Positions 17,590 through 57,740 of a DNA stretch of 64,000 nt are shown here, in pieces. The stretch is from Promethearchaeota archaeon (GTDB taxonomy: Archaea; Asgardarchaeota; Lokiarchaeia; Sigyniarchaeales; SOKP01). Location of the stretch: the NCBI GenBank assembly GCA_019058365.1, contig JAHPZE010000002.1, positions 96,001-160,000 of the forward strand, read 5' to 3'. Position numbers and translations under genes: made by a program. The notes under the pieces were generated by a model. It had not been told where the DNA came from, did not search any database, and was given only the letters and a program-made list of their open reading frames with translations. Numbering within the stretch: position 1 is the stretch's first letter; the number at the start of each line of letters is the position of its first letter.

Positions 17590-18120
17590 TTATTTTAATC
17601 TTACCTCTGAGAGATGAAGATGATCTGTTTCTACTTCTACAAAAGCTTTAAATATTTGCTTTACTCGAGTATTTTTTGCTTCAGCTGCCGCTTGGCTATA
17701 GAATTTTATAGCTCTATCTTCTCTTGAATGAGATTCTTCCAGATTTGGTTTATATTTCGCTGCACATTTATCATATTTAGGAAATTCAACTTTATCTAGC
17801 TTGAGTATTTTTTTCCAAACTGATGCGTGTTCCCCCTCAACCTTAGCAAGAATTTTAAAAATTTTTTGACCATCTAATTCTGGAGTCTTATTGCTCGCAC
17901 ATTTATAAAAGATATTATTCGATATTTCGACTTCTAAAGCCTTTTCTACATTAGTCTTATCTTTTTCATTTAATTCAACATCCCAAGCACCTGCATCATC
18001 ATATTGTGTTGATTCTACAAAATATTTTTTAAATGCGCCACAAAAAGGGCATCGACTAGGTGCTTCTTCTCCAATATACGCTTCTCCACATATCTTACAT
18101 ACAAATACTTTAACAAAAAT
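17590..18120 (-). CDS. Rubredoxin-like + ferritin-like (reverse rubrerythrin-type) protein; no canonical start, missed by ORF track
   Basis: Manual translation: (I)FVKVFVCKICGEAYIGEEAPSRCPFCGA...ALEVE..N..FY...EGEH...E..A.KFY...EVETDH...RLK*. Open from ATT at 18120 to TAA at 17590, with CxxC/CxxC and two ExxH motifs. Confidence 0.85.
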   Translation of the reverse strand: MFVKVFVCKICGEAYIGEEAPSRCPFCGAFKKYFVESTQYDDAGAWDVELNEKDKTNVEKALEVEISNNIFYKCASNKTPELDGQKIFKILAKVEGEHASVWKKILKLDKVEFPKYDKCAAKYKPNLEESHSREDRAIKFYSQAAAEAKNTRVKQIFKAFVEVETDHLHLSEVRLK

Positions 18121-18212
18121 TTTTTTTCACTACTTTTATAATTAATTTTTTTCCTATTATTTAACAAAAATTTTTTTTCACTACTTTTATAATTAATTTT
18201 TTTCCTATTATT
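18111..18212. repeat. Perfect 51-bp tandem duplication
   Basis: taacaaaaattttttttcactacttttataattaatttttttcctattatt occurs at 18111-18161 and 18162-18212. Confidence 0.9.
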
Positions 18213-18391
18213 TTCTTACAACTTAGTATAAGAGTTCAAATTTAGATTAAATTATTAAAATTTTCACAGTTTTTATAGTTTTAAGTTAATTTCTAAAAAC
18301 ATTATGCGTTAAATGCAATTATTAAAAAAAAATAGAATATAAAAAGAATTATAGAATCTTTTAAAATGCATTAATTTATTTAATCTTTGAA

Positions 18392-19486
18392 ATGATTTAT
18401 CGAGTTCTAGGCATAGATCCTGGTAGTCTATCATGGGATTTCTTCGGTTTGGAGGATAATAAAACAATTCTTGACACATCTTTACCCACTAAAGAACTAA
18501 TTGCTAATCCTCAGAAAGCTATTACTATAATTAATTCTGTAAAAAATATTGATCTAATGGTTGCTCCAAGTGGGTTTGGGCTTCCTTTAAAAGATGTACA
18601 AGAGTTAACAGAGCAAGATATTTTTTTTACGTTATTGAAATTTGATCAGAAAGAAAAAAACAAATTAATCGGTCTTGGTGAGGTTTTAAGACTTATAAAA
18701 GCTCAAAAGATACCTGGCATCATTGTACCTGGAGTTAAACATTTACCTACTGTTCCAAAGTATCGAAAAATTAATAAAATTGATATGGGTACGGCAGATA
18801 AAATTTGCACAGCTGTTACTGGAATTAAAGACCAAATGGAAAGATTTGAAGTTGGTCCAGAAAATACAAATTTTATTATGGTTGAGATAGGTTATGGGTT
18901 TACAGCAGTTTTAGCAATTGAAAATGGTCAAATTATTGATGGAATTGGAGGAAGTAATATAATGGGTTTTAGAGCTTGTGGCAGTCTTGATGGAGAATTA
19001 GCCTATCTAATTAAAAATATTCATAAAAAAAATATATATAAAGGTGGAGTAGCCTATATTTCAGGCTATTCCGATTTGAGTTTGAAAGAAATTACACTTT
19101 TAGCCGAGAAGGATGAACAAACTAAGATTGCTCTAAAAGCTTATTTATCAAGCGTGAAAAAAGCTGTTTTTGGAATATCTTCGTCTTTTTCATCCAAAGA
19201 AAAAATTAAAGAAGTAATGTTGGCGGGGAGAGGATCAAATTTAGCATATATTCGAGAGAAAATGATTCGTGGTTTAAATGATGTTGCCCCTGTAAGAATA
19301 ATGAATTCATATAGTCAAATAGCAAAACGTGCTGCTCAAGGCGCAGCCTTTATTGCCAATGGAATATTAGGTGGTAGATTCGAACCAATTATTAATAATT
19401 TAAAAATTAAAGAAGCTAATGGTTCTATTTTAGATGATATTTTTATTCCATTCGAAAAAGAAAAACTGATAAGTGATTTAGATTAG
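18392..19486 (+). CDS. DUF1464-family (butyrate-kinase-like ASKHA) protein
   Basis: GIDPGS.S.D, PSGFG.P, PGV.HLPTVP.YRK.NKIDMGTADK, AAQGAA.IANG. Confidence 0.85.
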   Translation: MIYRVLGIDPGSLSWDFFGLEDNKTILDTSLPTKELIANPQKAITIINSVKNIDLMVAPSGFGLPLKDVQELTEQDIFFTLLKFDQKEKNKLIGLGEVLRLIKAQKIPGIIVPGVKHLPTVPKYRKINKIDMGTADKICTAVTGIKDQMERFEVGPENTNFIMVEIGYGFTAVLAIENGQIIDGIGGSNIMGFRACGSLDGELAYLIKNIHKKNIYKGGVAYISGYSDLSLKEITLLAEKDEQTKIALKAYLSSVKKAVFGISSSFSSKEKIKEVMLAGRGSNLAYIREKMIRGLNDVAPVRIMNSYSQIAKRAAQGAAFIANGILGGRFEPIINNLKIKEANGSILDDIFIPFEKEKLISDLD

Positions 19487-21053
19487 AATTCTTATAATTA
19501 CTGGCCTGCTAAGTTATGATATAATAGAGAAGATAGTCAAACACGTAAAAGAGCATGAGATAAATATTATAAAAGCACCAATATCTATTTCTGCATTTCT
19601 TACAGAATCTATAATAACTGATATTTTAGAACAAATAGAAATTTCTAATTATGATTTGATATTATTGCCTGGTTTTGTCCAGTGGGATTCTACTAATTTA
19701 GAAGAAAAATTTTCAATAAATATTAGAAAAGGACCTGAATTTGCTTCTGATTTACCTGTAACCTTAAAAAATTTAAAAAATTTCATATTATCTAATACAA
19801 TACCGGCAAATAGATTATTAGAGATTTCAGGTGAAAATAAATATTCAGAAATTGTAAAGGAACAATTAGAATTGGCTAAAAACGATCTAGGTTCTCATAC
19901 ATATTACCTTAATGAAAAAAAGACTAATATCATAATTGGAAGGTATATGCCACCTCCTATAATTGCTGAGATTGTCAATTGTACTGAAAAAAGTAATGAG
20001 CAGATTCTTAAAAAAGCAAAACATTATATAAATTCTGGAGCGGATATTATAGATATTGGATGCGTATCTAATAAACCGAACCCCGAAAGAATCAAAGAGA
20101 TAATCAAATTAATTAGGTCCAAACATGATGTTTTGATAAGTATCGATTCAATGGTCCCAGAAGAAATAAATGCTGCTGCAGATGAAAACATTGATCTCAT
20201 TTTAAGTTTAGATCTCGGCAATTATGAAGAAATGTTAAATCTCCCTAAAAACATTCCTATTGTTATACTTCCCACAAATGTTAAGGATGCTTATTTTCCT
20301 AAAGATCCCGAGACTCGAATTAAAAATTTATTTAAATTAACAAAGAGATTATTAAACAATGGATTCAAGAAATTAATAGCTGATCCCTTATTAGAAACAC
20401 CTATAAGTCCAGGAATTTGCAACTCTTTGGAAGCTTATTTTCTATATAAAAAGAAAGTTATTGAAAATAAATACGAACCTTTTGAATTACCGATGTTTTT
20501 TGGAATTTCAAACGTAGTAGAACTCATGGATATTGATTCTATCGGAATTAATGGACTTTTAGCTAGTATTGCAGTTGAATTAGATATAGGAATTCTTTTT
20601 ACTGTTGAACATAGTGCAAAATTAATGGGAGGGGTAAGAGAATTAAAAGAATGTGTAAAATTAAATTATATTGCCAAGCATAATAAAACTCCCCCAATAA
20701 ACCAAGGAATCTCAATATTAAAGGCTAAAGGAAAAACAAGTCAAGAATTACCTCCTATAAATCAAGCTAATGTGATTTTAGCAGATAAAACCATACAAGA
20801 TTATATTCCCGATACTAATGGGTATTTTAGAATTTATACAGATAACTATTCTAAAAAAATCTTTGTTCATTTCTATTCTTATGATGACAAATTGCTTCAA
20901 ACTTTTATAGGGGAAAATGCTGAAGCTTTAAGTAAAAAGATAATTCAAAATGACTTAACTAAAAATATATATCATTTAAATTATTTAGGTAGAGAATTGA
21001 AAAAAGCAGAAATTTGCTTATTTTTTGGAAAACCTTATATCCAAGATGAATAA
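19482..21053 (+). CDS. Dihydropteroate synthase-like protein (dihydromethanopterin/MptH-related, C-terminal DUF4346-like domain); N-terminus extended to ATT
   Basis: IIAEI, GADIIDIG, ISIDS, IADP, SNVVELMD.DS.G.N, H..YLGREL.KAE. The frame is open upstream of the track's 19656 start, to (I)RILIITGLLS at 19482. Confidence 0.85.
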   Translation: MRILIITGLLSYDIIEKIVKHVKEHEINIIKAPISISAFLTESIITDILEQIEISNYDLILLPGFVQWDSTNLEEKFSINIRKGPEFASDLPVTLKNLKNFILSNTIPANRLLEISGENKYSEIVKEQLELAKNDLGSHTYYLNEKKTNIIIGRYMPPPIIAEIVNCTEKSNEQILKKAKHYINSGADIIDIGCVSNKPNPERIKEIIKLIRSKHDVLISIDSMVPEEINAAADENIDLILSLDLGNYEEMLNLPKNIPIVILPTNVKDAYFPKDPETRIKNLFKLTKRLLNNGFKKLIADPLLETPISPGICNSLEAYFLYKKKVIENKYEPFELPMFFGISNVVELMDIDSIGINGLLASIAVELDIGILFTVEHSAKLMGGVRELKECVKLNYIAKHNKTPPINQGISILKAKGKTSQELPPINQANVILADKTIQDYIPDTNGYFRIYTDNYSKKIFVHFYSYDDKLLQTFIGENAEALSKKIIQNDLTKNIYHLNYLGRELKKAEICLFFGKPYIQDE

Positions 21054-21067
21054 AAAAAAAAATTAAA

Positions 21068-21355
21068 TTAAATAATTTCATGACATATTTTTATATCGAT
21101 TCCAGGTTCTAAAAGAGGACTCAATTTTACCATGTTCTTACCTAAATTTTTATTATGTTGTTTCAATGCATCAGAATCAGCATATACTTCATAAAAAATA
21201 ATTGAATTTTCCTCTCCCTTTATTGTGTGAGGAATATATTGCAAACATCCTGGTTCTGATTCTTTTATTTTAGGTACAACTTCTTTTAGGACTTCAATTG
21301 CTTTTTCCATATTTCCTTTTTTCACTCGAGCTGCTGCAATTAATGTTATTGGGAT
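21068..21355 (-). CDS. Antibiotic-biosynthesis-monooxygenase (ABM/YgiN-like) family protein
   Basis: EPGCLQY, FYEVY.D..AL..H. The track's N-terminal 31 aa look like AT-rich intergenic sequence, so the start is placed near 21355-21367. Confidence 0.8.
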   Translation of the reverse strand: MPITLIAAARVKKGNMEKAIEVLKEVVPKIKESEPGCLQYIPHTIKGEENSIIFYEVYADSDALKQHNKNLGKNMVKLSPLLEPGIDIKICHEII

Positions 21356-21687
21356 TACAACCACCAATTCTTTCTTTATATTTTTAGTATTAATTTTAAT
21401 TTTTAATAAAATTATTAATAAAATTGTTAATTCCATAAAAAATTGCATTAGCTAAATAATATTGGTTATTTAGACAATTTTATTTCTATAATACATTCTA
21501 CTCAAATAGTACAAATAAAACCTTTTACAATATTACAATAATTAAAATCAGTTTATTTTAAAATTTAGGTACTCAGATGAGTTAATATTATAAATTTTAT
21601 GGTGAATTTATGAGTAGAAATTTAAATAATTACTAAACTTATATAGCATACACTTATGAACTAAATAACCTCAAACAGTTTGATATT

Positions 21688-23553
21688 ATGATCCCAAAAA
21701 ATATGGAATCCTTTCTTAATGAACATCTCCCTAAAGCTACTTTTAAAGCTCGGCTTAAAAAAGATCAAGGAAAATGTTATTTAGAATTTAGTAATCTAGA
21801 TGTCCATCTTTTATCCCATTTAGGGATTATATGCGATAAAGTAGGTCCTCACTTAGTAGGATGTATATGGGATGAAAATTCACCACTTGAAATCGGTGGA
21901 TATGTAGTTGTGGATTCCCTCGCGGGAGGTCGCCCTTCAATGGGAGGAATTAGGATGTTACCAAGTATAACTCCATCTGATATCCATAATCTAGCACGAG
22001 GAATGACGTTAAAAAATGCTGCTGCTAATCTTCCTTATGGGGGTGGAAAAGCAGGAATTGTAGCAGAAAGGGGACTCTCTCCCGAAGAACATACTAAAAT
22101 TGTCAGTGGTTTTGCTCGATTAATTCGACGGTATAAAGAAATCTACCTTCCAGGGCCTGATGTTGGCACGAATGATGCTGATATGAAGACTATTGCCATT
22201 GAAAATGGGTTAGATAAAGCTCTCTCTAAGCCTGCTGATATGGGTGGGAACCGTATTGATGAACTTGGAGCTGCTGCGGGAGGCGTTATAATTGCATTAC
22301 AAACTCTGTTAAAAATTATGCCAAGATTAAGAATACTTACTCAATTCGCTAATTTGGAAATTCCTAATACAAAAGATCTTAAAATATTGATTCAAGGTTT
22401 TGGAGCAGTAGGAGCTCATGCTGCCCGTATATTGAAAGATCGATTACCTGAAGCAAAAGTTATAGGTATTAGTGATTTAGAGGGATATTTATATAATGAA
22501 TCTGGATTACCTATTGGAGAATTATTTAAATTATGGAAAAAAAATAAATTAGTTACTAATCTATATTTTAAAAATCAAATACTCTCAGAAGGATATAAAC
22601 ATCCAACTAAATTTTCTACAAATGCAGATAATTTACTCCTAGAAAATGCATTTTGTTTGATTCCAGCTGCTCCTATTTTTAATTATTTATGTGTCAGAAG
22701 ATCTGAAAATCCTTCGATGACTGTTGATCGAATGGGAAAATGGTCAGTGATTATTGAAGGTGCTAATACTTACTCTCCTGATCCAAATAGAAAGGCTGCC
22801 CGAATTCGGATGGAACAAATTGTATATCGAGAAAAAGGAGTTATGATCGCAAATGATTATTTAGTTAATTCGGGTGGAGTAATATTTGCAGCTCAAGAGC
22901 ATATTGTAAAAACCCCAGATCACCTACAAATTCCAGAAGAAATGTTAGGTAATCGTGAATTAGTACAAAAATGGTTAAAAGATCATGCAAATGAATTTGC
23001 TAAATTATCAAAACAACGTTTAATAGCAGGTGAAGAATACAGAGAAAAAGTAATTCATAATAACATGATTGAATTAGTTGATATGCTAACTAAATATCCA
23101 GATATGTTACCCTGCACTGCTGCTGAACAAATAAGCCTTCAGCGTCTTACAGCGAAAGAAAGACAACGTACAGCTAAGGACATTATGATACCAATACCAA
23201 CTATCGACGTTAAAAGCACAATTCAAGAAGCTGCATCATTAATTATTAAAGAAGTGAGTGATATCATAGCTGTTCTTTCGAGTGGTAAACTTGTAGGTGT
23301 TGTAACTGATTGGGATGTTACAAAAGCTATGGCGGAGGGAAGTATAGATGTTACTCTTGACAAAATAATGACTAGAGATGTTATTACCACTCATCCAAAT
23401 TTTACAATTGTAGATATAGTGCGTGAATTGGAACAATCTAAAATCTCAGCAATGCCGGTTGTGGAAGAAGGTATTGTATTAGGAAAAGTTAACTCAGATC
23501 TCATTGCCCAACGCTACGTATTAGATTTACTACAGTCTCGAGAACCGCATTAA
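21688..23553 (+). CDS. Glu/Leu/Phe/Val dehydrogenase fused to C-terminal CBS pair
   Basis: GGIRM, MTLKNA, GGGKAG, PGPDVGT, QGFGAVG, IEGAN, NSGGV; AKDIM...LVGVVTDWDV...IMTRDV...MPVV CBS motifs. Confidence 0.9.
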   Translation: MIPKNMESFLNEHLPKATFKARLKKDQGKCYLEFSNLDVHLLSHLGIICDKVGPHLVGCIWDENSPLEIGGYVVVDSLAGGRPSMGGIRMLPSITPSDIHNLARGMTLKNAAANLPYGGGKAGIVAERGLSPEEHTKIVSGFARLIRRYKEIYLPGPDVGTNDADMKTIAIENGLDKALSKPADMGGNRIDELGAAAGGVIIALQTLLKIMPRLRILTQFANLEIPNTKDLKILIQGFGAVGAHAARILKDRLPEAKVIGISDLEGYLYNESGLPIGELFKLWKKNKLVTNLYFKNQILSEGYKHPTKFSTNADNLLLENAFCLIPAAPIFNYLCVRRSENPSMTVDRMGKWSVIIEGANTYSPDPNRKAARIRMEQIVYREKGVMIANDYLVNSGGVIFAAQEHIVKTPDHLQIPEEMLGNRELVQKWLKDHANEFAKLSKQRLIAGEEYREKVIHNNMIELVDMLTKYPDMLPCTAAEQISLQRLTAKERQRTAKDIMIPIPTIDVKSTIQEAASLIIKEVSDIIAVLSSGKLVGVVTDWDVTKAMAEGSIDVTLDKIMTRDVITTHPNFTIVDIVRELEQSKISAMPVVEEGIVLGKVNSDLIAQRYVLDLLQSREPH

Positions 23554-23590
23554 TAATTAAAATTTTAAAATATAATTTATTAAGAAGATC

Positions 23591-24721
23591 TTAATAAAAT
23601 TTTATAATATTATATAAAGTATCTCTTTGTGCTGGTCTTTTTCCTGCGTTATTTATTATTTTCACTATTTCTTCTGGAGACAAATACTCGCCAAATTCAG
23701 CACCAGCACTTTTTGAAATATTCTCTTCCATTAATGTTCCAGAGAAGTCATTAACCCCGTAATTTAAAGAAACTTGCGCAAAATTTGGACCCAATTTTAC
23801 CCAACTACATTGGATATTATCAATGTAATTATTAAAGAATAATCTTGCTACACAAAATAGTTTTAAATCATCCATTCCATAGTTAGGTTTTAAAGGAAAA
23901 TTTTCAAGTTGAGATAAAATCGGATTTTCTTTTACGAACGGTAATGGTACAAATTCAGTGAACCCATGAGTTTCCCTTTGTATTTCTCTTAATATTTCTA
24001 AATGCTTAACTCTATCACTTAAACTTTCAATATGGCCATACATTATGGTAGAAGTTGTTGGAATCTTTAACTTGTGAGCAGTAGTTATAATTTCTTTCCA
24101 TTGAGATGTATTCACCTTATTTGGACAAATCACTTTTCTTATTTCATCAACTAATATCTCTGCAGCTGTTCCTGGAATAGAGTCTAGTCCTGCTTTTTTT
24201 AATTCTCTAAGCGTATCTAATATCGAATTTTCAAATAATTTGGCTATATAGAATATTTCCTGTGGAGAAAATGCATGTATATGCATCCTTGGATCGATTT
24301 TTTTAACAGTTTTAAGAATATCCAAATAAAATTCAAACTTTACCTTAGGATTTATGCCACCTTGAATACAAACTTCCGTACATCCCGTATTTTTAGCTTC
24401 GATTACTTTTTCTCTAATCTGATCAATATCAAGTAAGAATGCATTAGGATCTGTTGCTGGTAAACTAAAAGAACAGAACTTACAGCGTTGATAACAAATA
24501 TTTGTGAAATTTATATTTCTATTTATAACAAAAGTTACAAGATTTTGCTTTTTTCCGAAGCAGATCTGATCTGCTACGTATTGTAAAGCAAAGAATTCTT
24601 TTCCCTTTACTTTTAAAATCTCTAAGGCTTCTTCTGAACTTATTTCATCCGAATCTAAAGCTTTCTGTAGAATTTTCTTTATATTTGGACTGATATTTTC
24701 AGACAACTGAGTATTTATCAT
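23591..24721 (-). CDS. cofH: FO synthase subunit 2
   Basis: NRNINFTNICYQRCKFC, GTAAEIL, STIMYGH, GFTEFVPL, GTLMEENIS; adjacent to cofG. Confidence 0.92.
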   Translation of the reverse strand: MINTQLSENISPNIKKILQKALDSDEISSEEALEILKVKGKEFFALQYVADQICFGKKQNLVTFVINRNINFTNICYQRCKFCSFSLPATDPNAFLLDIDQIREKVIEAKNTGCTEVCIQGGINPKVKFEFYLDILKTVKKIDPRMHIHAFSPQEIFYIAKLFENSILDTLRELKKAGLDSIPGTAAEILVDEIRKVICPNKVNTSQWKEIITTAHKLKIPTTSTIMYGHIESLSDRVKHLEILREIQRETHGFTEFVPLPFVKENPILSQLENFPLKPNYGMDDLKLFCVARLFFNNYIDNIQCSWVKLGPNFAQVSLNYGVNDFSGTLMEENISKSAGAEFGEYLSPEEIVKIINNAGKRPAQRDTLYNIIKFY

Positions 24722-25823: not shown

Positions 25824-26488
25824 TTTCTCTTTTTATAACTTAAAGTAATATAATAAGTTCTGATTTTAACATCAAATAAATCAAATCTAGGTGCACTTTT
25901 TATCTCTTCAAATCCTATTCCTTCTACCAAGCTTGTTGCTTCCTTTCCACCAACAATCCAGGGTGCTATAGTTAACCTTATATCATCAATTAAATTATTT
26001 TGTATAAAACTCCAATTTAAATTACCACCACCTTCCAATAAGATAGTATTTATTCCCAAACTTTTTAGGATCGGTAAAAGCTTTATTAAATCCACACGTT
26101 TACCATCTCCCGCTCTAATTATTTTTACTCCTCTTGCTTCATAATCTCTTTGTTTGGTAAATGGAACATTTTCAGTAGTGCAAATTATTGTAGGATAAAT
26201 TTCTGGTCGAAAGGAAATTACATTCGATTCTAGTGGTATCGTCAAATTGCTATCTAAAACAATTCTATAATATCCTTTATGATTATAATATTTAATATGC
26301 AATTTTGGATTATCTTTTAAAATTGTATCCTTTCCCACCATTATTGCATCAACTTGAGTTCGAAGTTTATGGACCTCTTTCCAGTCAACTTTATCCGATA
26401 ATTCTGAATCACCCTCTTTAGTTGCGATTTTACCATCTATAGTCATTGCAGCGCTTAAAATAATATAGGGATTGTTAACTTTTTTCAA
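25820..26488 (-). CDS. arfC: 2,5-diamino-6-ribosylamino-4(3H)-pyrimidinone 5'-phosphate reductase (RibD C-terminal-like)
   Basis: AAMTIDGKIA, H.LR...DAIMVG..T..DNP.L, EGGG.LN, AP.IVGG; no deaminase domain. Confidence 0.9.
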   Translation of the reverse strand: MKKVNNPYIILSAAMTIDGKIATKEGDSELSDKVDWKEVHKLRTQVDAIMVGKDTILKDNPKLHIKYYNHKGYYRIVLDSNLTIPLESNVISFRPEIYPTIICTTENVPFTKQRDYEARGVKIIRAGDGKRVDLIKLLPILKSLGINTILLEGGGNLNWSFIQNNLIDDIRLTIAPWIVGGKEATSLVEGIGFEEIKSAPRFDLFDVKIRTYYITLSYKKRK

Positions 26489-27644
26489 ATACTAATCCTC
26501 CTTTAATAAATGTCTTTTTTATATTTTCTGATTTTGTTCTTTGAGTAATTAGATCATATATATTATTAGAATCTAAAATTGAAGAAAAGAGATTTGGAGA
26601 GCTAAGATCAATTAAAAAAAGATCAGCAAATTTTCCTTTTGAAATTGAACCAAACTCTTTTTCGAGATCAAAATTTTTTGCAGCATTAATTGTAACCATC
26701 TTCAATAAATCTTTAGAGGAAAATTGAAGCTCTTTATTATAATTGCATAAAACCCTCGAAATTCGATAAAGATATCGTATCTCTTCAAATAAATCTGTAT
26801 TATTTACCATTAAATTATCTGTTCCTAAGGATATTGGAACTTTTAAGCTTAAAATTTCATTGATGGGAGGAAATCCGGTTCCAAAATATCCATTACAACG
26901 AGGACATAAAACAAGAGATTTATGATATCTGTTTATTTTTTCTAAATCATTTTTGATAAATTTTGTTCCATGAATGATGATATCAACAAAATTATCACTA
27001 AACATTTCATTTATTAAATTTTCACTACGAATCTTTTCCGCACAATGGCAAGCAATAATTTTTTTAAATTTATGTTTAGCAGATACAACAAATTTTTTAT
27101 TTGATGAACTAATTTGTTTATAACTAGATAATCCAACTCCATCTGCCATATTAAATATAGCTTCTATTTCGCTTTCATCCATAAATCGTCCTAAAACTAA
27201 AAAATTAATTGGACTGTCAGTAAGTGCCTTTTTTAAAAGCTTTACTCCTTTAACCCCTTCCTCTCGAAAATCAATGAAAAATGTAATACCATTTGAAAGC
27301 ATTTCTAAAACAGCATTTTGAATTCCATTAATCTTAATGTCTTTTGGAGTTTGTCTTAATAATTTATGTTTAAGGCCAAATGGTGGGGCAACGATTTCCC
27401 CTAGTTCTTTATTAAAACCCAATTCTTTTGCAAAATTATCTCCAATATGGATATGTGAGTTTATAAAACCTGGAATCATTAAGAATGTCTGATGATTGGG
27501 AAGAATTTCGATATTTGCACTTATATTATCACAAGAAATATGGATAATTCTTCCATTTTCGTCTATTTCTAAATTTACATTCTGCTTTAAATCTAAATTC
27601 TCTCCAATTAAAGCATATTTGCTATATAAGAATTTTTTAGCCAT
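26475..27644 (-). CDS. Metal-dependent amidohydrolase (putative nucleobase/pyrimidine deaminase)
   Basis: PGFINSHIH, PP.GLKH, H.AE, LGTDN, TINAA, G.I..GK.AD. Start placed at MAKK; the track starts at 27704. Confidence 0.85.
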   Translation of the reverse strand: MAKKFLYSKYALIGENLDLKQNVNLEIDENGRIIHISCDNISANIEILPNHQTFLMIPGFINSHIHIGDNFAKELGFNKELGEIVAPPFGLKHKLLRQTPKDIKINGIQNAVLEMLSNGITFFIDFREEGVKGVKLLKKALTDSPINFLVLGRFMDESEIEAIFNMADGVGLSSYKQISSSNKKFVVSAKHKFKKIIACHCAEKIRSENLINEMFSDNFVDIIIHGTKFIKNDLEKINRYHKSLVLCPRCNGYFGTGFPPINEILSLKVPISLGTDNLMVNNTDLFEEIRYLYRISRVLCNYNKELQFSSKDLLKMVTINAAKNFDLEKEFGSISKGKFADLFLIDLSSPNLFSSILDSNNIYDLITQRTKSENIKKTFIKGGLVFEKS

Positions 27645-27737
27645 TAATTCATAAACAATGTAAATCATTTTAAATATTTCTAATCCTTTTAAAGAATAGA
27701 ACATTAAAAAATTAATTTTTGATACTGGTGGCTATAA

Positions 27738-28697
27738 ATTACTAAATTTAAAACAGATCTACAAGATTCTGGTTCAATAATAGATATTCCAATTGACAAG
27801 GTTGGTATTGTAGAATTGCAAAAAAAAGTTGAGATTGTTCAAGAAAATAAAAAGTACTCTTTCTATCCTAAAATTTCAGCGTTAATCAATCTTCCAGCTG
27901 AGCAGCGTGGAATTCATATGTCCCGAACTTCGGAAACTATAGAAGAAGTCATTAATGAAGTAATTTTCAAGCCCACCCCAACTATTGAACTTGTTGGAGA
28001 TAGAATTATAAAGAAATTAATGGAACAACACCCTTATACTTCTAAAGCTGAAGTAAAACTAGAAGGCAAAATTGTTGTTCAAGTAAAAGAAAATGATGAA
28101 AGACTTATTCAAAAATCATATGACATTAGTTCATTTGTAAAAGCAAGTCGAGATATTTCGGAAAATCTTGATTTTAATTATTTCATAGGTGCTAGTGCAG
28201 TTGGTATGACGGTCTGTCCTTGTGCTAAGGAGCTTTCTTTGGAATATGCAGAAGAAGTTGTTAAATCTAGAAAAGATATAAATGTTTCCGAAGAAGATCT
28301 TAATAAGCTGTTAAATCTACTTCCTTTCTCCTCACATAACCAAAGATCCATTGGGACAATAATTATCCAAATAAAAGATTTAACTAATCATAAGGTGGAT
28401 GTTTTAGATATAATTGATGTAATAGAAGAATCTATGAGCGGTAAAATTCAATCTGTTTTAAAAAGACCAGAAGAAGCTGAATTAGTAAGAAGTGCACACT
28501 TAAAACCTCTATTTTCAGAAGATGTTATAAGAGAAATGGCAAAAAATTTCATTTTAAGAGATTTTCCCAACCTTGAAGATGATTTTAAAGTAAAATTTAA
28601 AGTAGAAAGTCTAGAATCTATACATCCCCATAACGTCTTTGCTTCACTGAAAACGACCGTAGGAGAGTTAAAAGAAAGGCTGAAATATATCCATTAA
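27738..28697 (+). CDS. mptA: GTP cyclohydrolase MptA (FolE2 family); N-terminus extended to ATT
   Basis: RGIHMSR, G.TVCPC, HNQR, LKRPEE, P.F.ED..R, ESIHPHN. The upstream in-frame DLQD...IDKVGI segment is the conserved family N-terminus. Confidence 0.9.
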   Translation: MTKFKTDLQDSGSIIDIPIDKVGIVELQKKVEIVQENKKYSFYPKISALINLPAEQRGIHMSRTSETIEEVINEVIFKPTPTIELVGDRIIKKLMEQHPYTSKAEVKLEGKIVVQVKENDERLIQKSYDISSFVKASRDISENLDFNYFIGASAVGMTVCPCAKELSLEYAEEVVKSRKDINVSEEDLNKLLNLLPFSSHNQRSIGTIIIQIKDLTNHKVDVLDIIDVIEESMSGKIQSVLKRPEEAELVRSAHLKPLFSEDVIREMAKNFILRDFPNLEDDFKVKFKVESLESIHPHNVFASLKTTVGELKERLKYIH

Positions 28698-28731
28698 TTC
28701 TTAATTGAAAAATTGATTATTTTGGAAATTA

Positions 28732-29916: not shown

Positions 29917-29944
29917 AATTTAATAATCACCAAATTTCTTATGT

Positions 29945-31296: not shown

Positions 31297-31371
31297 TTTC
31301 TCAACCCTTTTTATTATCTTTAATTTTATATTGAAATTTTTTCTTTAAATAATTGTTTTTTTCTTAAAATA

Positions 31372-41343: not shown

Positions 41344-41363
41344 AAAAAAAATAATTTTAAATT

Positions 41364-44835: not shown

Positions 44836-44997
44836 ATAACAGACCTTTTGATTTAAGATTTAAAAACAATAAGCTCTACTTTTTAGTTTTATACTAAAGA
44901 TATAAATAATTAATGAATAAAATACTACTATTATAATATTAGAAGTTTAATCTTAATTTCAAAATAAGATCTATAACTCTACAGATTTGAGAGAAAT

Positions 44998-47964: not shown

Positions 47965-48009
47965 CAAAGATACTTTATTTTTATTTTTTAATTTTTATTT
48001 TTTGAAATA

Positions 48010-48909: not shown

Positions 48910-49018
48910 ATCTTAAAAATAAATGAAGTAGTTTCATTATCAAGTATTATAAACTATTTAATATGATTAAATCTAATAGAATTATTAGCAGATTTTTAAT
49001 TATAAGGATGAATTAACT

Positions 49019-50821: not shown

Positions 50822-51026
50822 AAGAGGAAAATACTAGTATTAACTTTATTTTTAAAAATTTTTTTGCATTCTAAATATTTACTCTGAAAAATTATCATAT
50901 TTAATATTTTGAACTATTTCGATTTTCTATATAGACTATATAGACTCTATATAATATGATAAGAAAGCTTAAAACTCTAAAATTTTTTATTATAATAAAG
51001 AAAAATGGAGAAACTATATATTAAAA

Positions 51027-51197
51027 ATGTTTAATCGATATCTCTTAACCTTACTAAATCAAAAGAATGAATATATCAAATTAAAAAAAGGAGTTTCACA
51101 AACACCTCTCGAAAAATCTATTGATGACATAATTGAAAAAATTACGCAAGATATCGATAAAATAACAAAATTAAATCAAATTGATTGTATATATTAA
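51027..51197 (+). CDS. Possible 56-aa helical protein (below track cutoff)
   Basis: MFNRYLLTLLNQKNEYIKLKKGVSQTPLEKSIDDIIEKITQDIDKITKLNQIDCIY*; upstream GGAG. Confidence 0.4.
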   Translation: MFNRYLLTLLNQKNEYIKLKKGVSQTPLEKSIDDIIEKITQDIDKITKLNQIDCIY

Positions 51198-51222
51198 AAT
51201 TACAAATTTAGGAGAAAAAATT

Positions 51223-51405
51223 ATGAAACCTATTTTTAGAGAGTTTTGCTGTCCACAATGTGGAGAATTACGGCATATAAAAGTTAATGGCATTTGTTTT
51301 GATTGTAATAATGAAAACACTCTTAATTCATTCGCAGAACAGCGTAAATTACAGCAAAAGCTCGCTATGAAAAATCATTCTCTCACTGTAGAGAGTTATA
51401 ACTAA
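51223..51405 (+). CDS. Small zinc-finger protein
   Basis: MKPIFREFCCPQCG...GICFDC; GGAG 8 nt upstream of the ATG at 51223. Confidence 0.65.
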   Translation: MKPIFREFCCPQCGELRHIKVNGICFDCNNENTLNSFAEQRKLQQKLAMKNHSLTVESYN

Positions 51406-51569
51406 AATTATTTTAGTTTTTATTTAACTTGAATTTTTACAATCGAATCTTTTTTATTTAAGATTTTTATCTCATCAAAAATATTTTAAATTTAGTACTA
51501 ATTAATAAATTTATAAATTATAGAAATTCTCTCTTAGAAATTAATTTCATTATGAAGAGATGCTGAAAA

Positions 51570-52391
51570 TTGGTAGAAATTATACAAATTAGCGATTTAC
51601 ATTACGGAAGTGAATTCAGAGAAGATTGTTTTGAAAATATTATTAGTTATATTAAAGAAACTCACCCTGATTTAGTTGTCTGCACTGGAGATCTGGTGCA
51701 TAGGGGAAGAATAAATGAATTTAAAAATATAGTTCAATATATAAATAGAATAAAGGATATAACTAGGTTTATGGCGGTACCAGGTAATCATGATGTTAAA
51801 AGTTCAGGTCTCGTATTTTTTGAGAAAATTATTGGACCAAGAAGATCTAGATTGATTTTAGAAGAAAAAAATGCCCTGATAGTAGGTATCTGTTCCGCTA
51901 GAGATGATTTGGCCGAGGGTAGAATCGGGGATGAGCAATTGGATTGGTTAGGCCGCCAATTTAACCGGAATTTAGAAGATCGAGTAATAGCATTACATCA
52001 CCATTTAATTCCAATTCCAATGTCTGGACAAAAATTTACAACAGTCCGAGATGCGGGAGAAATTTTAGAGTTTACTAATTTATTTGAAATAGATCTAGTA
52101 TTAATGGGCCATCGCCATGTTCCTCATGCTTATACCATTTCTTGGAAGAATTCATCAAGTACAACTTTTCTTTACAGTGGTACTTCAACTTCAAATAAAA
52201 TCCGTGCTAATGATGCCCCTAGCTTTAATCATATTTTTCTTAGTGAAGGTAATTTAGAAGTTTATATAGTTAATTCGGTAAATCTTAAGAAGAATTTATT
52301 ACTGGAAAGAAAGGAACATCATACTGAATTTATTAGACCACGAAAAACTAGAATCGAACATTTACTTGCATCAGAAGTATGGGATGAATAA
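51570..52391 (+). CDS. Calcineurin-like metallophosphoesterase (Icc/CpdA type)
   Basis: SDLH, TGDL, GNHD, HHH, GHRH. Confidence 0.9.
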   Translation: MVEIIQISDLHYGSEFREDCFENIISYIKETHPDLVVCTGDLVHRGRINEFKNIVQYINRIKDITRFMAVPGNHDVKSSGLVFFEKIIGPRRSRLILEEKNALIVGICSARDDLAEGRIGDEQLDWLGRQFNRNLEDRVIALHHHLIPIPMSGQKFTTVRDAGEILEFTNLFEIDLVLMGHRHVPHAYTISWKNSSSTTFLYSGTSTSNKIRANDAPSFNHIFLSEGNLEVYIVNSVNLKKNLLLERKEHHTEFIRPRKTRIEHLLASEVWDE

Positions 52392-52420
52392 AAAGAATTC
52401 TATAAAGCAGGTGTAAATAT

Positions 52421-52849
52421 ATGCCTAAACCAATTACACCGTTATTAACGGTTGATGCTGTAATTTTAATAAATAACAAAAAGGATATTATCTTAATCCG
52501 GCGAAAAAATCCTCCTTTTCAAGGGCAATTTGCATTACCTGGAGGATTTGTTGATATAGGCGAAACCGTTGAAAATGCTTGTATTCGTGAAGTAAAAGAG
52601 GAAACAAATATTAGTGTGAAAATTATAAAACTTATTGGAGTTTTCTCCGATCCAGACAGAGATCCAAGAAGACATACTATCACTGTAGCCTTTCTTTGCG
52701 AACCATTAACAAAAAAGGAAAAACCAAAAGCTTTAGATGATGCTGCTGCCCTAGAAGTTGTACCTTTATCAAATCTTTCTTCATTAAAATTAGCTTTTGA
52801 TCATATGGAGATTGTTAAGAGTTCAGGGATATTAGATAACATAGATTAA
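52421..52849 (+). CDS. NUDIX hydrolase (ADP-ribose pyrophosphatase-like)
   Basis: LPGGFV..GET...A..REV.EET Nudix box; RDPR; LAFDH. Confidence 0.92.
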   Translation: MPKPITPLLTVDAVILINNKKDIILIRRKNPPFQGQFALPGGFVDIGETVENACIREVKEETNISVKIIKLIGVFSDPDRDPRRHTITVAFLCEPLTKKEKPKALDDAAALEVVPLSNLSSLKLAFDHMEIVKSSGILDNID

Positions 52850-52857
52850 TTGGATTA

Positions 52858-53265
52858 TCATTTTTCCTTTATTTCATAGAGATTTTGAAAAGAATCTTTA
52901 ATAAAAAGATAATATCCAACACCATCTTTCCTTGGAACTTTCACGATATCATATCCTAATGAACTTGCTCTATTAATAAAATCATCTCTATTTTCTATTA
53001 ATAAGCATGAATGAGTAAAAGTGTCCTGTGCTTTACTTTCATCATCAGTAATAAAAACCTCAAAACTTAGAGAATCTTTTTCATATCGTATAATTTTTTG
53101 TTCTTTACTTACACCAAAGAATTTTTCCATCAAATCAGCTGAGACTGTGAATGATCTTGTTCTTTTTAACCCCAATAATTCAATAAAAAAATCATCTGAA
53201 TTGCTTTCGTTATTTGCGGCAATAGCTATATGCTCTAAGTTTTTCTCACCCATATTCATTAACAC
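52858..53265 (-). CDS. VOC/glyoxalase-family protein
   Basis: LEHIAI...FF..LLGL, H.CL, FIKD...N..EI. Confidence 0.8.
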   Translation of the reverse strand: MLMNMGEKNLEHIAIAANNESNSDDFFIELLGLKRTRSFTVSADLMEKFFGVSKEQKIIRYEKDSLSFEVFITDDESKAQDTFTHSCLLIENRDDFINRASSLGYDIVKVPRKDGVGYYLFIKDSFQNLYEIKEK

Positions 53266-53476
53266 TCATCCAACTCAATTTTCGTTTTTTTAACTCAATT
53301 TCCAATCGTATCTATATACAAATATTACGATTAATTTTATTTAATATCTTAGTTAATTATTTATATCGTTTTGTAAATTATCGCAATTGATTTTTTGTTT
53401 AAAATTTAAAAATTTATAGGTAACAATATTATTAATAAGTTTAAAAAAAAAAGAATAAGGTTAAGGTCTTTTGTAG

Positions 53477-54346
53477 ATGACTGAAGTCTCAGAACAACAA
53501 TTTCTTACTAAACTTTGTGAAGTGGTGTATAAATTATCAGGAATCGTTAAAACTCAATCTCCTCGTTTTAAGAAAAAATGGGACGAATACTTTGAGCCTT
53601 TTAATATTAAACCTCATATTGTTCGCCAAATACCTCTTGATAAAGATAGATTTTTAAAAGAAATTGATTACAGAATTACAGTCCTAAAAAACGTTGAACA
53701 AGCAACATTGGATGGCTTTTATTTAGTAAAAACCTTATTACAAACCTTTTATGGTTCTTATTTTGATTCTGAGCTATTTAAAAATGATTTTTCCAAGGAA
53801 GATCAACTAATATTAAAATATTTCGTCGCAAAAGAAATTTTAGGAAATCTAATACAATATAATAAATTAGATCATGAATCTGTTCCATTAAAATATAATA
53901 TTATTGCCAGAAATTATACGTTAATAAAGTTGAAAGGCCAAACAAATCATGAAATACTGGATAACTTAAACAAACTAAATATAAAGGATATAAAGTTGGG
54001 TGATGTCGAAAATTTCATGAACGAAATCGAATTAGATGGAATCATCAATACTAAAAAGAAAGGGAAAGACTATGAGTATAGTTTAAAAAAAGAATTAGAG
54101 TTGACTAAAGAGGGAAAGAAATACTATAGTCAAGTACTTCAACCACTAGTTGATTTTCCAACCCTCTTTTTTCGTAGCTTCTTCAATATCAGAGAATTAA
54201 ATGTAACTTTAGATCAAAACGTTTCATATCGTGATTTTCTTCAAAAAATCCTGCTAAAAACCGCTACACAAGGATTTTCTCCTACTAATTATGTCTTCCA
54301 AAATTTGGTTAAGTATTATGAAAAAATTAGGGACGAATTTACCTAA
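53477..54346 (+). CDS. Hypothetical protein (possible C-terminal winged helix)
   Basis: 289-aa intact ORF, no recognised family; the ELTKEGK..Y segment resembles a wHTH wing. Confidence 0.6.
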   Translation: MTEVSEQQFLTKLCEVVYKLSGIVKTQSPRFKKKWDEYFEPFNIKPHIVRQIPLDKDRFLKEIDYRITVLKNVEQATLDGFYLVKTLLQTFYGSYFDSELFKNDFSKEDQLILKYFVAKEILGNLIQYNKLDHESVPLKYNIIARNYTLIKLKGQTNHEILDNLNKLNIKDIKLGDVENFMNEIELDGIINTKKKGKDYEYSLKKELELTKEGKKYYSQVLQPLVDFPTLFFRSFFNIRELNVTLDQNVSYRDFLQKILLKTATQGFSPTNYVFQNLVKYYEKIRDEFT

Positions 54347-54361
54347 TTTCTTTAATTCTCC

Positions 54362-55171
54362 TTAAAATTCGAATTCTTTCATTACCTCCTCGACAGAATA
54401 ATTCTCATGTAGAATTTTACTGATAGCTCGAACTAATTTTGTTGGATCTTCCGCTTGGAATACATTTCTGCCAAAAGCAACTCCTGATCCACCTGCTTCA
54501 ATCGAGTCATACACCATCTGAAGTAAATCTGGAATGGTGTTCATTTTAGGACCGCCCGCAATAATAACTGGAATATGTCTTACTCCTTTAGTAATCTTCC
54601 TAAATGAATCAATATCTCCTGTATAATTTGTTTTAACTATATCAGCTCCCAATTCAACTCCAGCTCTTACTGCAATATTAACTACACTAGGATCGTTTTC
54701 ATTTGTAATTTTTTTTCCTCGTGGATACATCATTACTATTAAGGGTACACCCCATTCTCTACTACTTTCCACAATTTTTTGAGCGTCTTGAAGCATTTCT
54801 GGTTCATCCTCTGCACCAATATTTATATGTATTGAAACCGCATCTGCGCCCATTTTTAAAGCACGCTCTACAGAACAAACTAAAACCTTTCTATTAGGAT
54901 GTGGTGATAAACTAGTAGCTCCTGATAAATGAATAATCAACCCAATATCCTTTCCATATTGCCTATGCCCTGCACTAACCATCCCAGAATGCATTAAAAC
55001 AGCATTTGCTCCTCCTAAAGCAACTTTATCCACCATTGCTGCTAAATCTTCCAATCCCTGGATAGTACCCATAGTCAATCCATGATCCATTGGAATTATT
55101 ATAGTTTTTTTGCTTTCTCTATCAAAAATCCGTTCCAATCTTATTCTTTTACCAAGACTCAATGGAAGCAT
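54362..55171 (-). CDS. aroA': 2-amino-3,7-dideoxy-D-threo-hept-6-ulosonate synthase (class I DhnA-type aldolase)
   Basis: [43 protein letters not shown]; near prephenate dehydrogenase. A class I FBP aldolase cannot be excluded. Confidence 0.75.
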
Positions 55172-55322
55172 TCACTTTAATAAATTTATATAAACTATTC
55201 AATATAATTAGAGCATAAATATAAAATTTAGTTTATGTTGGTACTTTTAGTGTTTTGTTTTAATTATTTATAATGCACTAAATAATTTTCCATATTTTAA
55301 TTCGAAATATATAAATAGTTAA

Positions 55323-55757
55323 TTGAAGGTTAAATTATTTAGTATGGTAATTTCATCAAAAATAATAAATGTACTCCTTCTCAGTGGCGTAGTTCTTTTT
55401 TTTATTGGAACCTTTTCAATTATTTATTATTTCATAATGTGTTTTGTAATTGAGATAATTATATCTCCTTTATATTTTATTATTGGATGGCTATTATTTG
55501 TAATTGGAGGATTTTTTATTGGAATAACCCCAAGGAAGTATTATCATACTATAAAAAGGGGGAATAAGAGAATATTGGAAATAGAATTACTTATTATAGG
55601 TTTATGTGGATTAATATTATGTACTTTTATATCTATAGCTACTGATATTTATATTTATAGAAATGATGGGACATTTCCCTTTCGAACATTATTATTTTTT
55701 ACTGCTGGATTTGTAGGATTTATTATAATAAAAATAATACGGAAAAAAAAGCAGTAG
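55323..55757 (+). CDS. Hypothetical 4-TM membrane protein
   Basis: Four hydrophobic segments with basic loops. Confidence 0.55.
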   Translation: MKVKLFSMVISSKIINVLLLSGVVLFFIGTFSIIYYFIMCFVIEIIISPLYFIIGWLLFVIGGFFIGITPRKYYHTIKRGNKRILEIELLIIGLCGLILCTFISIATDIYIYRNDGTFPFRTLLFFTAGFVGFIIIKIIRKKKQ

Positions 55758-55803
55758 ACGAAATTATTTATGTCGTTATAAATAATAAATTTAATTATAC
55801 TTC

Positions 55804-56706
55804 CTATTCTTGTTTTAAAATTTTCATAAAATCATAAAAATATCTATAAGAATCTTTAAAATCATTATCTTCTTTAGAATAATCTAATGCTTCGTCAAAA
55901 ATCTGATTGAACTTAGATATATTCTTCTTTTGAATTATTGTTTTATATTCTTTTATTAAGCTTTCTAATAAATTTAACACTTTATGAAATTCTTGATTTT
56001 CTATTTGAATTTCTGCAAACATATCTCTCTCTCTTTGAATTATACTCTCAGCGAAAACTTTTTGTAACAAGAATGTAGTACCAGTATATTTCGTTAACTC
56101 AGTCAATGGTTCTTTTGACCTTCTAATAAGATTTAAAAAGAGAATGTTAAACATATGAGGTACTCCTAAGGTTAAAGCAATTCGTCTATCATGAATTTCA
56201 GGTGTACTCTCAGTGATTATTAGCCCATTTAATTCAAATAAAGTTATTAATTCATTTACTAAATCATCATAATTTTCTGTACCACCAACTTTTAACACGA
56301 TCATAACATAGTTTTTCATATCTTTTATACCAGGACCAAACATAGGATGTAGTGAAAGGCAATTTATTGGGTAAACTTTAATAATTTTTTGCATTGTATT
56401 CACGACCATGTTTTTTAATGATGTAATATCCATGAGTAAGGCGTTTTTTTTTAATAATGGGGAAATCTTTTGAATCATACTCACAGTAGAAGTAATTGGA
56501 ATTGAAACTAAAATTATGTCTGCATCTTTCACACTCTCTTCTAAAGAAGATTCATAGTTTATATCAAATTCATGAGCAACAATCTTTAATCTTTCCAAAT
56601 TTCTTGCATATATTGTAATTTTAAAACCATTTCTTTTAAAAAATTCTCCAAAAACTTTACCCATGCCACCAGAACCACCAATTATAGTAAGGTTTTTTCC
56701 TAACAT
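55804..56706 (-). CDS. tyrA: Prephenate dehydrogenase
   Basis: IIGGSGGMG, DITSLK, HPMFGP, HD......GVPH. Confidence 0.88.
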   Translation of the reverse strand: MLGKNLTIIGGSGGMGKVFGEFFKRNGFKITIYARNLERLKIVAHEFDINYESSLEESVKDADIILVSIPITSTVSMIQKISPLLKKNALLMDITSLKNMVVNTMQKIIKVYPINCLSLHPMFGPGIKDMKNYVMIVLKVGGTENYDDLVNELITLFELNGLIITESTPEIHDRRIALTLGVPHMFNILFLNLIRRSKEPLTELTKYTGTTFLLQKVFAESIIQRERDMFAEIQIENQEFHKVLNLLESLIKEYKTIIQKKNISKFNQIFDEALDYSKEDNDFKDSYRYFYDFMKILKQE

Positions 56707-56750
56707 CAGACTATCATTTATTTTATTTTTAATTTAATTATTAATTTTTA

Positions 56751-57626
56751 TTACATATCTTTTGTTTTCTTTATTGGGATATTGAATTCTTCTAAAAGAG
56801 GTATAAGATGTTTCTTGTCTTCGGAATTTGTCCCTTTCCAATCAATAATAAAATAATCAACCTTTTCAAGAGTATTATTTACCATTTGTTCAATTAAATC
56901 TTTATTTAATTCTTGAATGTAATATTTTGGACATATGAAAGACATAGCGATATTCGTATTTCTGATTAATCTATGAAAATTTGGAGCATAGTGAGTACCT
57001 CCAAATCCTAACCCTACTTTTTGATCTCCCATTTCTTTATATTCAATATATTTCTGAAAAGTACTAAAAATAGCGTTTGTTAATATCATTCCTGCCTCAT
57101 CTATTTTCCATTCCACCTTACTGCTTCCTAATTCCATGAAAATTAAAGGTTTATCTAAGATTGTAGGGCCATGGTGAGTTACCTCAATATCAAGTGAGAA
57201 TTCTGTTAATGTTGGGGGAAACTCTTGTTCAGTTAATGAAATAAATCCTGCCTTATGAAGTAATGCACTTGTTTTTGATAAATCTTGAGGATCTCCACCA
57301 AAATCTGTATCTTTACTCCAGTTACCAGTAGTATGAACTAAAAATGCTGGTCGGGTAGATTTTGAGGTATGACGACTTGCAAAAATAAGATAATCTGGAT
57401 TTATCTCTGATTCCTCTAATTTTAAATCATTCAAAAAAATTAATGGATCCTTTGTAAGCCCTAGCAATACTTCATTTTCAGTAAAATTTGTCGTTAATTT
57501 GAAAACGGGATTTTCATGCCATATGAAATGTGTCTCCTCGAAATTGTACACTTTAGAATTTATAAACTTTTCTCTTATGTTCATTGAGGCTTTATCCTCG
57601 GTTGAGGTTATGATTAGAAACTCGAT
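56751..57626 (-). CDS. dtdA: D-aminoacyl-tRNA deacylase (archaeal DtdA/GEK1 type); N-terminus extended to ATC
   Basis: FASRH.S, VH.TGN, EVTHHGP, ELGS...W, GFGG.HY. The upstream in-frame FLIITS..D.ASMN segment is the family N-terminus. Confidence 0.9.
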   Translation of the reverse strand: MEFLIITSTEDKASMNIREKFINSKVYNFEETHFIWHENPVFKLTTNFTENEVLLGLTKDPLIFLNDLKLEESEINPDYLIFASRHTSKSTRPAFLVHTTGNWSKDTDFGGDPQDLSKTSALLHKAGFISLTEQEFPPTLTEFSLDIEVTHHGPTILDKPLIFMELGSSKVEWKIDEAGMILTNAIFSTFQKYIEYKEMGDQKVGLGFGGTHYAPNFHRLIRNTNIAMSFICPKYYIQELNKDLIEQMVNNTLEKVDYFIIDWKGTNSEDKKHLIPLLEEFNIPIKKTKDM

Positions 57627-57740
57627 TACATATCACCAATGAGCTTTTTTGTACTATGTCTTTATTAATCTCAATAAAAATTTTATAATTTTAGTTAATT
57701 ACTTCAACTTTAATAATTTTTAAATCTATTTTCAATATTA

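Follow-up and report, generated by a model that had tools for sequence, protein, structure and literature searches.

In a 64,000-nt stretch of DNA from a Promethearchaeota archaeon of the Lokiarchaeia (contig JAHPZE010000002.1, here G000:C34:96001-160000; the whole stretch is called the window below), four genes very probably start at ATT or ATC behind a strong Shine-Dalgarno (SD) motif, as do ~2% of the genes of this genome at ATT, ATC or ATA. They encode a dihydropteroate-synthase-like (DHPS-like) protein, the GTP cyclohydrolase MptA, the D-aminoacyl-tRNA deacylase DtdA and a rubrerythrin-like protein. We hold it to be highly likely that these starts reflect SD-guided near-cognate initiation at AUU, AUC and AUA by the ordinary initiator tRNA, inherited throughout the lineage. 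The genome (G000) is a metagenome-assembled genome of 4.74 Mb in 54 contigs, with 29.5% GC and 6.6% estimated contamination, and orthologous loci from 30 relatives, of which 18 are congeneric, were compared with it. Its 16S rRNA ends in ...GGATCACCTCCT (also given as …GAUCACCUCCU), so that the expected SD core is GGTGA(T). An initial annotation of the window had drawn attention to such starts and had advised inspecting the 16S anti-SD; this 3' end is indeed complementary to GGTGA(T)-type SDs, and every position and motif given there for the genes below was present in the window on re-reading.

Probable start codons of four window genes

The four genes and their SD motifs map as follows.

19482..21053, plus strand: dihydropteroate-synthase-like gene of the TIGR00284 family, 523 codons, start ATT 19482-19484
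19473..19477, plus strand: SD-like GTGAT, 4-5 nt 5' of the DHPS-like ATT, within the last codons of the upstream gene
27738..28697, plus strand: GTP cyclohydrolase MptA gene (mptA), 319 codons, start ATT 27738, directly after an in-frame TAA
27727..27731, plus strand: SD-like GGTGG, 6 nt 5' of the mptA ATT
56751..57626, minus strand: archaeal D-aminoacyl-tRNA deacylase (DtdA) gene, start ATC 57626-57624
57633..57637, minus strand: SD GGTGA, 6 nt 5' of the dtdA ATC; its TGA is an in-frame stop
17590..18120, minus strand: rubrerythrin-like gene, start ATT 18120-18118; N-terminal rubredoxin-like Cys4 domain and ferritin-like domain
18127..18131, minus strand: SD AGTGA, 6 nt 5' of the rubrerythrin-like ATT; its TGA is an in-frame stop

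In the first three genes, the conserved N-terminus had been placed upstream of every ATG, GTG and TTG, and the coordinates of profile hidden Markov models agree with this placement. The DHPS-like product matches TIGR00284 over its full length (291.3 bits versus a cut-off of 256.65; residues 1-522 on profile positions 1-494 of 497), and since the profile aligns from residue 1, ATT 19482 corresponds to profile position 1. This ATT lies directly 3' of an in-frame TAG (19479-81) and shares bases with the stop codon that ends the upstream gene (ATTAG); the GTGAT before it, complementary to the 16S 3' end, is kept in congeners. The first canonical codon, TTG 19656, comes 58 codons in, and a start there would remove 58 residues including most of DUF6513. 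TAG-ATT was found in all 14 congeneric loci read, with variation at nearby synonymous sites. Orthologues from other families carry an ATG 1-10 codons ahead of the same ILLITG strand, and in that of G020 (MQVLILTG) the Met aligns with the ATT 19482 codon.

Similarly, the mptA product gave a full-length match to TIGR00294 (262.1 bits versus a cut-off of 220; profile positions 2-301 of 302). Residue 7 aligns to position 2 of the profile, and no canonical codon occurs until TTG 27816, 26 codons in at residue 27. All 18 matching genomes of the genus, G000 included, have GGTG(A/G/T), ~6 bases and then ATT (ATA in G004), and the stretch from this codon to the first canonical one shows conservation at the protein level with synonymous changes. 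Across 56 species-level genomes spanning 64-99% protein identity, the first codon was ATT in 46, ATC in 5, ATA in 2, ATG in 2 and GTT in 1. Most AT[T/C/A] orthologues have GGTGA, GGTGG, GGTGT or AGTGA ~6 nt ahead of the start, and in a few the gap is 5-9 nt; no SD motif was seen before the mptA start in the two ATG species. As these starts reach down to 64% protein identity, the near-cognate trait spans that clade. Other families of the order have an ATG aligned to the ATT 27738 codon or one codon off; alignment is exact for G025 (MSRFKADLQ), and orthologues L113 and L123 likewise have ATG at the homologous codon. Two of the four window genes, those for the DHPS-like protein and MptA, both ATT-started, belong to tetrahydromethanopterin/pterin cofactor biosynthesis, which may be coincidence.

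The first ATG of dtdA (57584) lies 14 codons downstream of the ATC, at residue 17 of the stop-to-stop frame, residue 6 of which corresponds to position 3 of NF003072. The product matches PF04414 with 195.4 bits (cut-off 33.6); the score against NF003072, the best equivalog, is also 195.4 and below the cut-off of 272 for that model. The start codon in 17 genomes of the genus, including G000, is ATC (8), ATT (6), ATA (2) or ATG (1, G013), in every case behind GGTGA or GGTGT with N6 spacing, and other families have ATG at the start.

The rubrerythrin-like gene had been assigned to the same pattern, and its open frame (17590-18126, minus strand, 178 codons) indeed contains no ATG, GTG or TTG that would yield at least 50 aa. 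Its product matches PF21349, the rubredoxin-like domain, from residue 8 to 36 (34.6; cut-off 26.5) and PF02915 at residues 59-170 (33.2; cut-off 22.8), in the reverse of the classical rubrerythrin order; against the NCBIfam rubrerythrin equivalog it scored 27.8, below the cut-off of 200. (A/G)GTGA-N6-ATT is found at this start in G000, G002, G004, G016, G005 and G008, and G011 has GGTGA-N6-ATG, with identical codon and spacing. Thus, a search of the orthologues for ATG at the same codon, which the initial annotation had proposed as a check, returned examples for all four genes (G013 for dtdA, G011 for the rubrerythrin-like gene, L113, L123 and G025 for mptA, and G020 for the DHPS-like gene).

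Translation could instead begin at the downstream canonical codons (TTG 19656, TTG 27816 and ATG 57584), the upstream stretches being untranslated leader. Three of the four genes do offer such codons, which Prodigal-type public calls take as starts (465-aa forms), and in about half of the congeners mptA has an ATG 5 codons in. However, the upstream stretches show protein-level conservation alongside synonymous variation and match DUF6513 positions 3-86, TIGR00284 position 1 and the Cys4 rubredoxin knuckle; the rubrerythrin-like gene lacks any usable canonical start; and the conserved SD is phased at 6 nt to AT[T/C/A] but at 21 nt or more to the downstream codons. We therefore regard this explanation as very improbable.

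A second alternative is that the window sequence is wrong or the genes are decaying, so that an ATG was misread or a homopolymer indel masks a GTG that would start the rubrerythrin-like gene. The 54-contig assembly and its estimated contamination speak for it, as do an A8 run between GTG and ATT upstream of the G000 rubrerythrin-like gene and an out-of-frame ATG-TAA ahead of dtdA. Yet identical codons recur in 14-56 independently assembled species, and each open frame is uninterrupted over its full length. A GTG start with a homopolymer frameshift was rejected for the rubrerythrin-like gene: G005 and G008 read GTGA AAA AAG ATT, in the same frame and of the same length with the homopolymer broken, and G016 is likewise; the A8 run of G000 is therefore a substitution and not an indel hiding the GTG. 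The out-of-frame ATG-TAA before dtdA occurs in no congener and was rejected as a frameshift site. The sequence data thus refute this alternative, to which we assign a negligible probability.

Ribosomes might also restart after the SD by translational coupling, independently of the start codon, the ATT being incidental. This would suit the DHPS-like gene, where the ATTAG overlap and the location of the SD inside the upstream gene are kept in all congeners. On the other hand, mptA is divergent from its minus-strand neighbour (26475-27731), and several hundred bases of intergenic sequence precede both dtdA and the rubrerythrin-like gene, so that coupling cannot explain three of the four genes; candidates elsewhere in the genome (see below) also mostly come after non-coding A/T-rich leaders. 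As a general account, coupling has very little likelihood.

The start region of the rubrerythrin-like gene contains a further element.

18109..18213, no strand assigned: perfect 51-bp tandem duplication, 2.1 copies, spanning the rubrerythrin-like SD, ATT and first three codons

In the upstream copy, the SD is followed by ATT TTT GTT AAA TAA, a 4-codon mini-ORF (open reading frame). G005, the closest relative, carries one copy and is 51 bases shorter; the duplication either arose recently or is an artefact of assembly.

A fifth gene was also proposed to fit the pattern, a proposal for which the evidence is ambiguous.

21068..21355, minus strand: antibiotic biosynthesis monooxygenase-like (ABM) gene, start ATC 21355, or in-frame TTG 21367 or GTG 21364

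A GGTGG (21365-21361) precedes the ATC by 5 nt. In G004 and G013, an ATG stands exactly at the ATC position of G000 and G002, 15 codons before a conserved Met, with GGTG 6 nt ahead of it in G013, and this ATG supports reading the ATC as the start. Against the proposal, the in-frame TTG and GTG lie 3-4 codons upstream and themselves form the apparent SD. The PF03992 match starts from residue 34 of an open frame that has an ATG of its own at residue 2; the corresponding long form from ATG 21448 was rejected, as in G002 a stop occurs in frame 2 codons ahead of TTG GTG. A start at ATC 21355 is plausible but ambiguous.

To complete the picture for the window, 64 non-overlapping ORFs of at least 70 aa were compared with the syntenic DNA of G016, G002, G013, G004 and G011. 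No further gene needing a non-canonical start was found in this census against the five congeners, and in every other census gene protein conservation sets in at, or just after, a conserved canonical start. The window total is therefore four firm and one plausible near-cognate starts among ~55 real genes.

Two minus-strand frames of the window deserve mention in their own right. At 54362-55171, G000 has AGTGA directly followed by ATG and the G011 orthologue AGTGA followed by ATT; a TTG three codons on, conserved in both, may be the start instead. The 95-codon frame at 60220-60507 matches just the C-terminal part of orthologues that in five congeners have ~80-130 extra N-terminal residues, and the G000 frame runs into the end of another, of 481 codons (60476-61921, minus strand); a frameshift, truncation or rearrangement in G000 may be the cause.

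Probable near-cognate starts across the genome

We extended the analysis to 3,899 non-overlapping gene-like ORFs of at least 100 codons in G000. Codons were scored when they lay within 15 codons of the upstream stop and before any canonical start, with none canonical in the next 10 codons, and the SD gap was measured from an SD 4-mer, with the end of GGTGA as the anchor. A peak at a gap of 6 nt was evident for ATG (153 sites), ATT (24), ATA (23) and ATC (7) and faintly suggested for CTG, whereas control AT-rich codons of equal abundance (AAT, TTA, TAT and TTT) gave flat profiles with 2-5 sites at this gap. The remaining codons, when pooled, peaked at 3, 9 and 12 nt, as expected for the neighbours of real starts. 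For 5-mer SDs with no canonical start nearby, the counts were 187 for ATG, 50 for TTG, 32 for ATT, 30 for ATA, 16 for GTG, 7 for ATC and 5 for CTG. Taken together, recurrence in independent assemblies and this spacing statistic with its control codons exclude both chance and sequencing error, and for the four window genes the sequences allow us to consider sequencing error, pseudogenes and programmed frameshifting as excluded.

After background subtraction, the excess of ATT, ATA and ATC falls almost wholly on SDs with at least 5 nt of contiguous complementarity (~54 sites); more than half of the ATG excess is found with 4-nt SDs. The three near-cognate codons make up ~16%, about one in six, of the starts that have an SD of at least 5 nt before them. 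Weak codons are thus paired with strong SDs, as compensation predicts.

At gaps of 5-7 nt, there were 96 candidates (49 ATT, 31 ATA, 10 ATC and 6 CTG), from which 20 were drawn at random and counted as validated when the first positions of a Pfam domain lay upstream of the first canonical codon. By these N-terminal coordinates eight were validated; three had looser support, seven were uninformative and two were contradicted, so that ~85% of the informative sampled candidates were validated or supported. The validated ones comprise DJ-1/PfpI (2-163), ApbA (1-148), Ras (1-161), NTP_transferase (1-240), adh_short (1-193), ABC_tran (1-137), dtdA and the rubrerythrin-like gene. Two candidates were rejected, namely the CTG at C10:18888, where the Ras domain of a Ras-like GTPase begins at a canonical codon 19 codons downstream, and an ATA on C11 (glyoxalase), better explained by a downstream canonical start. 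For a uL15-like ribosomal candidate (ATT, G000:C34:13127), NCBIfam returned a weak L18e match, and an ATG lies 11 codons in.

From these data we estimate that at least 55-80 genes, ~2% of the total, would use near-cognate starts. The earlier impression of how common they are holds for the window (4-5 of ~55 genes), but the window's 5-9% does not extend to the genome. The list of codons given then, ATT and ATC, stands as far as it goes, both being used, but it missed ATA, which is about as frequent as ATT, and an occasional CTG. As for the latter, a minus-strand candidate on C46 of G000 (CTG then INVDKEKCTGCGLCE) and five other CTG sites stand behind GGTGA-N6, and CTG in this setting may serve as the start of a few genes. 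Among first canonical starts of G000, an SD 4-mer at 4-8 nt was seen in ~20% and one of at least 5 nt in ~12%; for most genes, initiation seems to proceed without an SD, on leaderless transcripts or in another mode.

The claim that SD-guided near-cognate initiation extends through the lineage agrees with the recurrence of AT[T/C/A] at the same positions, with an SD at ~6 nt, across 14-56 species. In G026, from another family and with 31% GC, we counted 8 sites at gaps of 6-7 nt per 800 kb versus 14 per 800 kb in G000 and ~1 per control codon, a comparison of low power; one example, the N-terminus of a PemK-like protein behind GGTGA-N6-ATT, looks real. The trait is thus probably present in that family, though weaker.

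Initiation machinery and proposed mechanism

We then turned to the factors that would read these codons. The gene of aIF1 (SUI1), whose inspection had also been advised at the outset, lies outside the window (locus L150, G000:C35:130394-130609, minus strand) and has no canonical start before its Cys4 knuckle. Its own start is ATT throughout the genus, that is, in G000 and all 16 congeners with a readable start, behind AGGTTGTGA at a long spacing of 9 nt. A second genus (G024, G028) has ATA at the same place, and other genera have an aligned ATG or TTG. This AUU start of aIF1 itself suggests a relaxed or tuned start-codon stringency, and the relaxed start-codon selection proposed for the lineage in the initial annotation may apply in one of these forms.

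A motif search for the initiator hallmarks (A1:U72 and three G-C pairs, GGG/CCC, in the anticodon stem) found one tRNA, near G000:C35 107,640 (plus strand), with anticodon CAT and a ~31-nt intron after position 37/38. aragorn reported 11 tRNAs without its intron option and 29 with it, none a tRNA-Met, and Rfam RF00005 gave 25, versus ~46 expected. Most tRNAs of G000 bear introns and escape aragorn.

These data bear on the possibility that a dedicated device renders AUU, AUA and AUC cognate, be it a second or modified initiator tRNA, editing of the third base in the RNA, or initiation with Ile. Archaea do modify a CAU anticodon, that of tRNA-Ile2, with agmatidine to read AUA, and tRNA detection in G000 is incomplete because of introns. 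Nevertheless, the sole tRNA found with initiator hallmarks has CAT, the three third bases interchange at one site (dtdA), which fits wobble tolerance better than one new anticodon, and the dependence on a strong SD fits a weak codon in need of compensation. A dedicated device is hence highly improbable.

For near-cognate initiation by the ordinary initiator tRNA, we propose that a GGTGA-type SD pairs with the 16S 3' end and would set the near-cognate codon, 5-6 nt downstream, in the P site. There, the CAU anticodon of the ordinary initiator tRNA would read AUU, AUC or AUA with the third position mismatched, and the protein would presumably begin with Met. The strong SD may be what makes the weak codon tolerable. 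The trait would be inherited, with the codons kept as AT[T/C/A] over dozens of species and occasionally exchanged for ATG. What we infer from the genomes is actual initiation at these codons, insertion of Met and a relaxed or tuned stringency.

Several points weigh against this mechanism. The lineage is uncultured, and the case is built from genome sequences. Sulfolobus aIF1 rejects AUU in vitro (PMC4705826), so that efficient use of AUU here calls for an explanation, at present conjectural. The tRNA inventory is incomplete, and a second, unusual initiator tRNA may have escaped it. The related genomes compared are not independent, and species counts accordingly overstate the support; the ABM gene, with its canonical codons close upstream, is ambiguous. 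The SD-anchored census has ~15-25% false positives and is blind to starts that lack an SD or lie near a canonical codon, which makes 55-80 a lower bound.

A further step, which we put forward as a tentative and rather unlikely extension, is that stringency is regulated. By analogy with IF3 and eIF1, aIF1 would limit its own synthesis through its weak SD-AUU start. Stringency at steady state would thereby stay low enough to let a conserved set of at least 70 AUU/AUA/AUC genes be expressed, including tetrahydromethanopterin-cofactor genes and those of DtdA and rubrerythrin, and the output of this set would vary with aIF1 activity. If true, an archaeal 'stringency regulon' of this kind would connect the IF3/AUU circuit of bacteria with the eIF1/poor-context circuit of eukaryotes.

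Comparison with known systems and significance

Near-cognate initiation led by an SD is already known, and ATT, ATC and ATA are listed as starts in NCBI table 11; what is unusual here is the frequency and the evolutionary stability in an Asgard lineage. The AUU start of E. coli infC allows IF3 to limit its own synthesis (PMC4705826). Like the starts proposed here, those of infC and of pcnB, also AUU, are third-base near-cognates behind an SD, read by the normal initiator tRNA, and the likeness to infC extends to a fidelity factor whose own gene has a weak codon (IF3 in E. coli, aIF1 here). Unlike in E. coli, where a handful of genes is concerned, ~2% of genes and ~16% of strong-SD starts are involved in this lineage and are kept over dozens of species; moreover, it is an archaeon with the eukaryote-type factors aIF1, aIF1A and aIF2, in which aIF1 autoregulation is a conjecture.

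Eukaryotic eIF1 also limits its own synthesis, through a weak start site (PMC4705826; PMC3326321), and eIF5 is autoregulated by way of upstream ORFs. aIF1 is the eIF1 homologue and has a weak AUU start with 9-nt SD spacing. The two differ in the weak element: for eIF1 it is the Kozak context around an AUG, on an mRNA that is scanned, and for aIF1, read from its gene, it would be a non-AUG codon behind an SD.

Within the Asgard archaea, a 'rare ATT start codon' has been described for the tubulin gene atubA (Heimdallarchaeia, Kariarchaeaceae; Sci Adv 2026), where the deposited protein was too short and an upstream ATT at a plausible distance from a ribosome-binding site restored the N-terminal strand (PMC13394414). 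That case concerns one gene in another Asgard class, is called rare and comes with no genome- or lineage-wide pattern. Apart from this single-gene remark, no systematic report of such starts in Asgard archaea or Lokiarchaeia was found in a literature search of incomplete coverage. Mitochondria and Mollicutes (NCBI tables 2, 4 and 5) are AT-rich genomes with AUA, AUU and AUC as regular starts. Their translation machinery is reduced and mostly independent of the SD, whereas the present genome of 4.7 Mb has the standard code, and its near-cognate starts depend on a strong SD.

The systematic truncation of such genes by gene callers, also anticipated from the window, applies in part. ENA/JGI-type calls do shorten the DHPS-like protein (465-, 505- or 509-aa forms), but NCBI records of congeners already use the ATT start, with a 523-aa protein beginning MRILIITG in which ATT is read as M; truncation thus partly holds, for ab initio callers and not for the homology-guided calls of NCBI. 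Under Prodigal-type calling, such proteins are cut short or missed, at the cost of a 58-residue N-terminal domain in the DHPS-like protein, of the Cys4 domain in the rubrerythrin-like one, and of P-loops and Rossmann motifs in others. Such shortened calls distort Asgard protein catalogues, structure predictions and expression constructs, and atubA is a published case corrected by hand for the same reason.

Archaeal start codons are taken to be AUG, GUG and UUG, and this lineage would depart from that rule in ~2% of its genes, that of aIF1 included. It would thereby offer, in the closest archaeal relatives of eukaryotes, a natural system for the trade-off between eIF1-type proofreading, SD pairing and AT mutation pressure.

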